From: a phage
Sequence record: AB218930.1
Strand: one strand, 5' to 3'
DNA length: 853 nucleotides
The notes below the pieces were generated by a model. The model saw only the letters and a program-made list of their open reading frames with translations, was not told the DNA's origin and ran no database searches. Positions within the stretch are counted from its first letter, which is position 1; each line of letters opens with the position of its first letter. Made by a program: the position numbers and the translations under genes. Below are positions 1 through 853 of the stretch, piece by piece.

Positions 1-27
1 TTCGAGCTCGGTACCCGGGGGCGCGCC
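1..27. other. Vector polylinker (5' side): SacI GAGCTC 4-9, KpnI GGTACC 10-15, SmaI CCCGGG 14-19, AscI GGCGCGCC 20-27
   Basis: Contiguous, overlapping restriction sites in the order of the pUC19 multiple cloning site, followed by an added AscI site. This arrangement matches my recollection of the pNEB193-type polylinker. Seen directly in sequence. Confidence 0.85.
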
Positions 28-28
28 G

Positions 29-95: not shown

Positions 96-488
96 ATGGC
101 AACTTTACGCAGTTTCGTACTCGTCGATAATGGCGGTACGGGGAATGTTACTGTCGTTCCTGTTAGCAATGCCAACGGCGTCGCTGAGTGGCTTTCTAAT
201 AACTCGCGCAGTCAAGCTTATCGCGTGACTGCCAGTTATCGTGCGTCAGGCGCGGACAAGCGCAAATACACCATCAAACTTGAAGTACCGAAAATCGTTA
301 CTCAAGTTGTAAACGGTGTTGAGCTGCCTGTTTCCGCATGGAAGGCTTACGCCTCTATTGACCTGACCATCCCGATCTTTGCTGCAACCGACGATGTGAC
401 TGTTATTTCCAAGTCACTCGCCGGCCTGTTCAAAGTTGGGAACCCTATCGCTGATGCTATCTCTTCTCAGAGTGGCTTCTACGCGTAA
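96..488 (+). CDS. cp: ssRNA phage (Levivirus, GA-like / genogroup II) capsid coat protein, complete, 130 codons
   Basis: The translation MATLRSFVLVDNGGTGNVTVVPVSNANGVAEWLSNNSRSQAYRVTASYRASGADKRKYTIKLEVPKIVTQVVNGVELPVSAWKAYASIDLTIPIFAATDDVTVISKSLAGLFKVGNPIADAISSQSGFYA aligns along its full length with the MS2 coat protein as I recall it (FVLVDNGGTG, ANGVAEW, NSRSQAY, RKYTIK.EVPK, GVELPV.AW, LTIPIF, GNPI). It is closest to my recollection of the phage GA coat. The length is typical (~129 aa) and a GGAG RBS is present. Confidence 0.95.
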   Translation: MATLRSFVLVDNGGTGNVTVVPVSNANGVAEWLSNNSRSQAYRVTASYRASGADKRKYTIKLEVPKIVTQVVNGVELPVSAWKAYASIDLTIPIFAATDDVTVISKSLAGLFKVGNPIADAISSQSGFYA

Positions 489-679
489 TGGGTCTGAAAG
501 CAAAACATAAGGAAAACCTATGTTCCGATTCACAGAGATCGAAAAGGCTCTATGTATGGATCGCACTCGCGATTGTGCTGTCCGATTTCACGTCTATCTT
601 CAGTCACTGGATTTGGGGTCTTCTGATCCTCATTCTCCGGACTTTGATGGACTTGCCTACCTTCGTGATGAATGTTTAA
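488..679 (+). CDS. L: ssRNA phage lysis protein (L), 63 aa, single transmembrane helix
   Basis: The ATG at 488-490 shares its A with the coat stop codon TAA 486-488 (UAAUG). The product has a basic N-terminal region (KAKHKENLCSDSQRSKR) followed by a hydrophobic segment (LYVWIALAIVLSDFTSIFSHWIWGLLILIL), resembling the MS2 L protein segment LYVLIFLAIFLSKFTNQLL. Position, size and +1-frame overlap with the replicase start fit levivirus genome organisation. Confidence 0.85.
   Translation: MGLKAKHKENLCSDSQRSKRLYVWIALAIVLSDFTSIFSHWIWGLLILILRTLMDLPTFVMNV
504..524 (+). promoter_or_regulatory. Translational operator hairpin (coat-protein binding site) enclosing the replicase start codon
   Basis: AACAUAAGGAAAACCUAUGUU folds by eye into a stem 504-512 / 517-524 with one bulged A (509 or 510), a 4-nt loop AAAA (513-516), and the replicase AUG (520-522) in the 3' arm. 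This has the same architecture as the MS2 operator ACAUGAGGAUUACCCAUGU. The AGGA at 510-513 doubles as the replicase Shine-Dalgarno element. Confidence 0.75.
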
Positions 680-810
680 CCAAACATCCCTCACTTGGAG
701 ACAGTAATTCGGATGCACGCCGTAAGGAATTGGCATGTGCCAAACTTATGGATAGTGATCAAAGATGCAAAATCCAAAACAGTAACGGATACGACTACTC
801 TCATATCGAG
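520..810 (+). CDS. rep: RNA-dependent RNA polymerase (replicase beta subunit), N-terminal 97 codons only; 3'-truncated at the PacI cloning junction
   Basis: The translation MFRFTEIEKALCMDRTRDCAVRFHVYLQSLDLGSSDPHSPDFDGLAYLRDECLTKHPSLGDSNSDARRKELACAKLMDSDQRCKIQNSNGYDYSHIE matches the N-terminal region of the MS2 replicase as I recall it (GSGDPHSDDF..AYLRDELLTKHPTLG). The AUG sits in the operator hairpin, and the frame stays open to the end of the window with no stop. Confidence 0.9.
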
Positions 811-853
811 TTAATTAAGTCTAGAGTCGACTGTTTAAACCTGCAGGCATGCA
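811..853. other. Vector polylinker (3' side): PacI TTAATTAA 811-818, XbaI 820-825, SalI 826-831, PmeI GTTTAAAC 833-840, SbfI/PstI 840-847, SphI 847-852
   Basis: Order and spacing are those of the pUC19 multiple cloning site with added PacI and PmeI sites, as in pNEB193-type vectors. Seen directly in sequence. Confidence 0.85.

Follow-up and report, generated by a model that had tools for sequence, protein, structure and literature searches.

The coat–lysis junction of a GA-like RNA coliphage fragment: a one-base stop–start overlap lacking a Shine-Dalgarno sequence, and its probable operation by termination-reinitiation

The window, that is, the whole stretch of 853 bases analysed here, is a cloned cDNA fragment of a group II RNA coliphage that is flanked by plasmid polylinker on both sides and holds no native genome end. 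The polylinker at the 5' end carries the sites GAGCTC, GGTACC, CCCGGG, and GGCGCGCC, and the one at the 3' end the sites TTAATTAA, TCTAGA, GTCGAC, GTTTAAAC, CCTGCAGG, and GCATGC; the names given to these sites are presumptive, and the vector is taken to be of the pUC/pNEB193 type. The insert is a cDNA amplicon of about nucleotides 1258–2039 of phage GA, and runs from the final bases of the maturation gene, through the complete coat and lysis (L) genes, to codon 95 of the replicase gene (Table 1). Compared with the group II F-specific RNA coliphages, positions 29–810 (782 nt) are 97.3% identical to BZ13-DL20, 96.9% to DL10, and 96.7% to GA (X03869/NC_001426), and 88.7–90.4% identical to KU1 and T72, all of the matched phages belonging to Emesvirus japonicum. 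Both this nucleotide identity and the order of the Pfam matches (Levi_coat, Phage_MS2_lysis, RNA_replicase_B) place the insert within the GA-like Emesvirus japonicum. The encoded coat protein is identical to the GA and BZ13 coats in 127–129 of its 130 residues (129/130 for BZ13-DL20), and its differences from GA, at T59, V79, and D120, are at the level of strains.

Table 1. Position of the features discussed in the text within the 853-base window
Feature	Position	Strand	Description and basis
Plasmid polylinker	1..28		SacI-KpnI-SmaI-AscI type; direct reading; phage match starts at 29
Coat protein gene	96..488	+	130 codons plus TAA; ORF table; Pfam Levi_coat, E 1.6e-38; X03869 annotation
Predicted closing helix	442..493	+	ACCC 442-445/GGGU 490-493 plus CGC 449-451/GCG 483-485; MFE and partition-function folds
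Hairpin in the coat 3' end	454..478	+	stems 456-459/473-476 and 461-464/469-472, loop 465-468; MFE folds
TAATG junction	486..490	+	coat TAA 486-488, lysis ATG 488-490, A488 common to both; direct reading and ORF table
Lysis (L) gene	488..679	+	63 codons plus stop; ORF table; Pfam PF11125 (Phage_MS2_lysis, MS2 lysis protein), E 3.3e-7, 30.6 bits (cut-off 25)
Replicase translational operator hairpin (coat-protein binding site, by annotation)	504..524	+	contains replicase ATG 520-522; in MFE folds
Replicase gene, 5' part	520..805	+	ATG 520; Pfam RNA_replicase_B, E 4.1e-22; annotated in X03869; ended by cloning site
Plasmid polylinker	~806..853		direct reading; phage match stops at about 810, so vector-insert boundary approximate

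MS2 L and the L-like proteins are characterised by a basic N-terminus and, after it, a hydrophobic region in which a Leu-Ser dipeptide is conserved. The product of the L gene has such a basic N-terminus and a hydrophobic stretch, VWIALAIVLSDFTSI, with a mean hydropathy of 1.95 and the LS dipeptide at residues 31–32, which, together with the profile match, assigns it to the L-like family PF11125; L31 and S32 are invariant in an alignment of five L-like sequences. The protein is identical in all 63 residues to the annotated lysis protein of BZ13-DL20 and in 60–63 of 63 across GA/BZ13, differing from that of GA at Q16, I49, and R51, and the gene is annotated as encoding the lysis protein in the GA, BZ13, and KU1 records. 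It is read in frame +2 relative to coat (equivalently −1), and overlaps the replicase gene from position 520. The lysis note of X03869, 'put. lysis protein (aa 1-64)', shows a minor inconsistency with its own CDS (1717–1908), which corresponds to 63 residues plus stop.

The coat stop and the lysis start meet in the pentamer TAATG. The one-nucleotide overlap described in the first-pass annotation proved exact to the base on direct reading and in the ORF table, and the comparison with the published GA mapping that it recommended gives the same result, the coat gene of X03869 spanning 1325–1717 and the lysis gene 1717–1908. In the records of DL20 and DL10 (FJ483839 and FJ483837), the coat and lysis CDSs likewise have one base in common. 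The junction and its flanking 20 nt are identical in GA, DL10, and DL20, and TAATG is also kept in an IMG/VR copy. As a test for chance, the frequency of the pentamer gives no signal, with three copies in the window vs 1.75 expected, and TAATG by itself is not rare; the significance of the junction comes instead from its conservation in GA, DL10, DL20, and the IMG/VR copy, and from the fact that the ORF it opens encodes a recognised lysis protein. The lysis frame opens after the TGA at 452–454, and ATG 488 is the first ATG, GTG, or TTG found there. Initiation at another in-frame codon had been considered as a possible refutation; no other start-type codon is present in that frame between the TGA and codon 30, and the next one, GTG 575 (codon 30), falls within the hydrophobic segment, so that there is no credible alternative to AUG 488 as the start.

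The strength of potential Shine-Dalgarno (SD) sequences was evaluated by scoring each 4–9-mer in the 20 nt 5' of each start against the 3' end of the 16S rRNA. The best anti-SD duplex before the lysis AUG reaches −2.7 kcal/mol (AGAGUGGC, with 11-nt spacing), which equals the window median and is matched or bettered by 51% of all window positions. The duplexes of the coat and replicase starts reach −6.1 and −6.2 kcal/mol, respectively, and the earlier observation that no convincing SD precedes the lysis AUG is borne out by this comparison. By the anti-SD duplex computation alone, the lysis cistron holds no RBS for independent initiation. The motif GAGTGG (470–475, + strand), 12 nt before the AUG, was rejected as an SD, its −2.7 kcal/mol being the window median; its counterpart in DL10 is GAGCGG.

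Regarding the RNA structure around the junction, the region 440–535 folds better than its shuffles (z −2.6), and the same local fold is obtained in the MFE structure of the whole 777-nt insert. It is formed by the hairpin in the coat 3' end, the short CGC/GCG helix, the predicted closing helix, and the replicase operator hairpin (Table 1). The first of these corresponds to GA 1683–1707, annotated in X03869 as 'pot. stem loop structure; pot. function in lysis gene control'. The predicted fold places U486–U489 (UAAU) in an internal loop, with probabilities of being unpaired of 0.9–1.0, compared with 0.0 for G490–G492. Thus, within this fold, the AUG is paired at its G alone, and the lysis start is no more buried than the coat start. 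Covariation lends the junction fold no support: among the close, GA-like relatives the paired columns do not vary, and the closing helix is missing in the more distant contigs L019 and L021, so that covariation gives no signal either way. Since U486–U489 are unpaired in the local folds, no masking structure is needed to account for the lack of independent initiation, for which, judging from these models, the missing SD would be a better explanation than a structure masking the start.

The replicase translational operator hairpin corresponds to GA 1733–1753, annotated as 'pot. binding site coat protein' in X03869. When compared with the MS2 operator family of Rfam (RF02359), it gives a sub-threshold match at 503–523 (18.1 bits, with a gathering threshold of 40, and E 0.12); the Rfam search of the window returned sub-threshold matches only, namely this one and one spurious snoRNA. 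The weak operator score is in keeping with the differences known to distinguish the operator of GA from that of MS2. The lysis ORF passes straight through this hairpin.

The coat–lysis overlap is already known, as it was annotated in the GA record of 1986, and reinitiation at this junction has been tested experimentally. For more than two decades, the GA junction has served as the model of Inokuchi, Kaji and colleagues for SD-less translational coupling and for RRF function (PMC9955659). As relayed by PMC9955659, the deletion and substitution analyses of Inokuchi et al. (EMBO J 2000) revealed no sequence permitting coat-independent lysis expression. In the reporters of PMC9955659, whose junction sequence is that of window positions 491–520 except for the engineered changes, the conversion of the upstream AUG into AUU abolished reporter expression. 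With the UAAUG sequence and active RRF, 24.7% of the upstream ribosomes were found in the AUG frame, vs 0.2–0.6% in the other two frames, and the change of UAAUG to UAAua made downstream reading fall from 24.7% to 0.4% of the upstream ribosomes (PMC9955659). In the same system, an AUG placed 4 nt upstream of the UAA retained around 20% of the D=1 (1 nt) value, a drop of about five-fold, and AUGs located −1 to +4 nt downstream of the UAA were about equally active. Upon inactivation of RRF at 39 °C, all three frames were read and total downstream reading approximately doubled (PMC9955659).

The AUG-to-AUU and UAAua constructs of PMC9955659 support the claim of the first-pass annotation that lysis synthesis depends on ribosomes that terminate coat translation. 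The value of the present analysis is confirmatory, in that a reading made from the sequence only (overlap, no SD, reinitiation) was correct, and the experiment proposed with it had already been published for this very junction. As a discovery it carries little weight, the overlap having been annotated in 1986 and the junction having long been a model of coupling. The reporters of PMC9955659 are plasmids with the coat 3' end only, and not phage infections, and therefore neither the efficiency of about 25% nor the consequence for timing is carried over to the virus.

The GA-type coat–lysis junction very probably works by termination-reinitiation translational coupling. The stop and the start overlap as in UAAUG-type coupling, with TAA at 486–488 and ATG at 488–490. 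According to this mechanism, ribosomes would translate the coat gene and terminate at the UAA, after which a fraction of them would restart on the AUG, shifting frame, and would make the 63-aa membrane-active L protein from a gene without an RBS of its own. The output of L would then be a fixed, sub-stoichiometric fraction of coat translation, and lysis would thus follow the accumulation of coat protein. In this scheme, two elements are inferred, namely what the coupling means for the timing and dose of lysis in an infected cell, and the physical state in which the ribosome restarts.

An overlap of this kind might also be an incidental result of genome compression, with the L protein arising from independent, weak SD-driven initiation at GAGUGG (470–475) or another purine-rich stretch. 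Indeed, GAGUGG and the anti-SD are able to pair over 5 bp in an interrupted duplex, and one-base and four-base overlaps are described as common in compact genomes (PMC6728339). However, the −2.7 kcal/mol of this duplex, at a spacing of 11–12 nt, is no better than that of half of the window positions, the motif reads GAGCGG in DL10, and no downstream expression is left once the upstream AUG has been removed (PMC9955659), which contradicts independent initiation and leaves it with a probability close to negligible. It has also been considered that the local structure (454–478 and 442–445/490–493) closes the start, and that coat-translating ribosomes open it so that a free 30S subunit initiates de novo at AUG 488. 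The z-score of −2.6 for 440–535, the predicted pairing of G490–U493 with 442–445, and the label 'pot. function in lysis gene control' of GA 1683–1707 are in favour of such an unfolding, which is moreover a proposed model for the MS2 coat–lysis pair at its −50 spacing (PMC12548453). Nevertheless, the site offers no SD by which a free 30S subunit could be recruited, and the start does not appear sequestered, A488 and U489 being unpaired with P 0.9–1.0 in the thermodynamic prediction. In addition, a ribosome standing on UAA 486–488 would, to judge from the size of its footprint, cover AUG 488 and block a second ribosome. Unfolding does not predict the approximately five-fold loss observed with the AUG 4 nt upstream of the UAA (PMC9955659), nor is it favoured by the EMBO J 2000 analyses, in which, as far as PMC9955659 relays them, no deletion or substitution gave coat-independent expression. 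The closing helix is not kept in L019 or L021 either. Altogether, unfolding is a very improbable explanation for the GA junction.

Within coupling itself, the ribosome could be in one of several states, and 30S scanning, 70S scanning, and RNA unfolding are all under discussion (PMC7538156, PMC12548453). One proposal is van Duin-type scanning, in which the post-termination 70S or 30S particle remains bound to the RNA and reaches the AUG by sliding one base, as opposed to the release by RRF and rebinding proposed by Kaji and Inokuchi. Scanning to the nearest start has been shown with coat–lysis constructs of phage fr and MS2, where, in the work of van Duin's group, ribosomes that had terminated at the coat stop reached whichever start was nearest, upstream or downstream (PMC12548453). 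The resistance of coupled genes to kasugamycin favours 70S scanning (PMC12548453), and the L start positions tolerated among relatives, from −47 to +20, are those that bidirectional scanning predicts. On the other hand, the AUG frame alone is read when RRF is active, and three frames are read, at about double the level, when it is inactivated at 39 °C, two results that the authors of PMC9955659 take to mean that the ribosome is released and then rebinds. The involvement of RRF is under dispute; depletion of this factor had no effect on coupling in four studies according to the 2025 review (PMC12548453), Saito et al. (PMC7538156) reporting the same. The sequence alone cannot discriminate between release-rebinding and sliding, and the probability of a ribosome that stays and slides is put at slightly below even.

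Termination-reinitiation coupling at the GA junction can be compared with several known systems. GA and BZ13 DL10/DL20 are the same species-level virus as the window, with the same junction and the same annotated overlap, and exhibit no functional difference from it. MS2 and fr (Emesvirus zinderi) hold an L protein of the homologous PF11125 family, the same gene order, and, as in the window, an L gene that overlaps the replicase gene, and their L expression needs coat termination (Berkhout 1987; Adhin & van Duin, as relayed by PMC12548453). However, their L start lies before the coat stop, at −47 in MS2 (coat 1335–1727, L 1678–1905; '-50 spacing' in PMC12548453) and −38 in fr, while that of GA overlaps the stop. 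The initial remark that MS2 achieves the same coupling with a different geometry is thus correct. In the MS2/fr geometry, ribosomes must move backwards or a regulatory hairpin must open, which makes unfolding a serious model there, and it is still a candidate at the long MS2 distance (PMC12548453); because the GA start overlaps the stop, unfolding is unlikely in GA. The same logic of terminating and then restarting is followed by the −1 and −4 overlaps of cellular genes (UGAUG and AUGA, as in trpB-trpA) and by the UAAUG of eukaryotic viruses such as caliciviruses and the hypovirus CHV1 (PMC6728339, PMC2699510, PMC12548453). However, cellular pairs mostly keep an SD inside the upstream gene and calicivirus-type systems require a TURBS element that pairs with the 18S rRNA, whereas the GA junction holds neither.

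A variation on the GA arrangement is that of KU1 and BZ13-T72, which belong to the same species and encode a near-identical L protein, with a start near the coat stop and without a strong SD (−4.0 kcal/mol). In these phages, an insertion of 18 nt separates the A of the ancestral AUG from its UG, resulting in a UUG start 17 nt after the stop; the use of UUG in KU1 was reported by Groeneveld et al. 1996, as relayed by PMC12856241. Since the KU1-type junction works with a UUG start and a distance of 17 nt between stop and start, a one-base overlap is not essential. Part of the KU1 insertion is reverse-complementary to the 3' end of the coat gene (CUACGCC/GGCGUAG), and the predicted pairing of the two yields a 7-bp hairpin that presents the coat UAA as a triloop, and the UUG pairs into a predicted extended closing helix (ACCCGG/UUGGGU; L005 611–726, around record positions 1700–1740). 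The fold of this region has an energy of −36.6 kcal/mol and a z-score of −3.5. It is conceivable that the junction fold (hairpin 454–478 plus closing helix, with UAAU in the internal loop) might hold or position the post-termination ribosome and promote reinitiation, as a bacterial analogue of viral reinitiation-stimulating structures, the fold having apparently been rebuilt in KU1 following the insertion of 18 nt, so that the stop lies in the triloop and the UUG in the extended closing helix. This role is very improbable; if true, the efficiency of SD-less coupling (about 25%) would be set by structure, and not by codon proximity alone.

For reinitiation at the start nearest to the coat stop, the positions of the L start among relatives are informative (Table 2). 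Viral and metagenome contigs were scanned with the coat and L proteins, the metagenome scan using the coat alignment, which yielded a set of Emesvirus-like genomes. ORFs were regarded as L-like when they had a basic N-terminus, a hydrophobic segment, and an LS dipeptide, and the start positions refer to the coat stop, counted from its first base. The anti-SD duplexes computed for these relatives are in no case better than −4.0 kcal/mol, except in L013/L023 (UAAGGAU, −5.9 kcal/mol). The resulting continuum of starts (−47 to +20, with AUG, UUG, or GUG, and mostly without SD) would be consistent with such nearest-start reinitiation. At the level of sequence, it also shows the one-base overlap to be apparently one solution of several, and not an essential one. 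This range of geometries in metagenomic relatives, along with an L gene apparently left unannotated in the RefSeq entry NC_073941, is the only mildly new part of the analysis.

Table 2. Position of the L start with respect to the coat stop (first base)
Phage or contig	L start	Start codon and context
MS2	-47	AUG
L020	-14 or +16	AUG
AVE017	-5	AUG, as AUGGCUAA
Window, GA, DL10, DL20	+2	AUG, as UAAUG
L021 (coat 63% identical)	+2	AUG, as UGAUG
L019	+3	GUG, as UAAGUG
L013-15, L023	+15	AUG, coat frame
KU1, T72, L009-11, L016	+20	UUG
L017	+20	AUG

Several of these relatives deserve mention on their own. In L021 (OGVH01003227.1, 1198–1202), the SD-less UGAUG overlap opens a 72-aa MS2-like L ORF. L019 (OGVK01001857.1, 1588–1593; coat 73% identical) is also SD-less, and its UAA is directly followed by the GUG of a 60-aa ORF that has the KHKENLC motif in common with GA L. 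The members of the clade formed by L013–L015 and L023 (coat 57% identical) hold a 70-aa L-like ORF in the coat frame, 12 nt after the UAA, preceded by UAAGGAU (with 8-nt spacing) as well as AGGAG at a distance of 1 nt from the AUG; these are the only relatives with a plausible SD of their own. In this clade, read-through of the stop codon would fuse coat to L.

The record of the ssRNA phage AVE017 (L006, NC_073941) annotates the maturation, coat, and replicase genes only. Its positions 1754–1945 hold a 63-aa L-like ORF (MAKPSNRRRSLREENPCRAERVPKRTVVFAVSAICLSKYINQ...) with the LS motif; its AUG precedes the coat UAA by 5 nt, and the ORF runs over the start of the replicase gene. This ORF looks like an unannotated lysis gene. 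L017 (OGVH01001890.1, 375–397) is a KU1-like metagenomic strain and has the 18-nt insertion after the coat stop, and it reads cagTAATGgg where KU1 reads cagCATTGgg, so that its L start is AUG and not UUG. It looks like an intermediate between GA and KU1, and suggests that the insertion may have preceded the change of AUG to UUG. In L025 (OGVW01006499.1), a coat homologue (83% identical) is interrupted at around position 1279 by an in-frame TGA located approximately 40 codons before the expected end, which could reflect an assembly error, a frameshift, or a defective genome.
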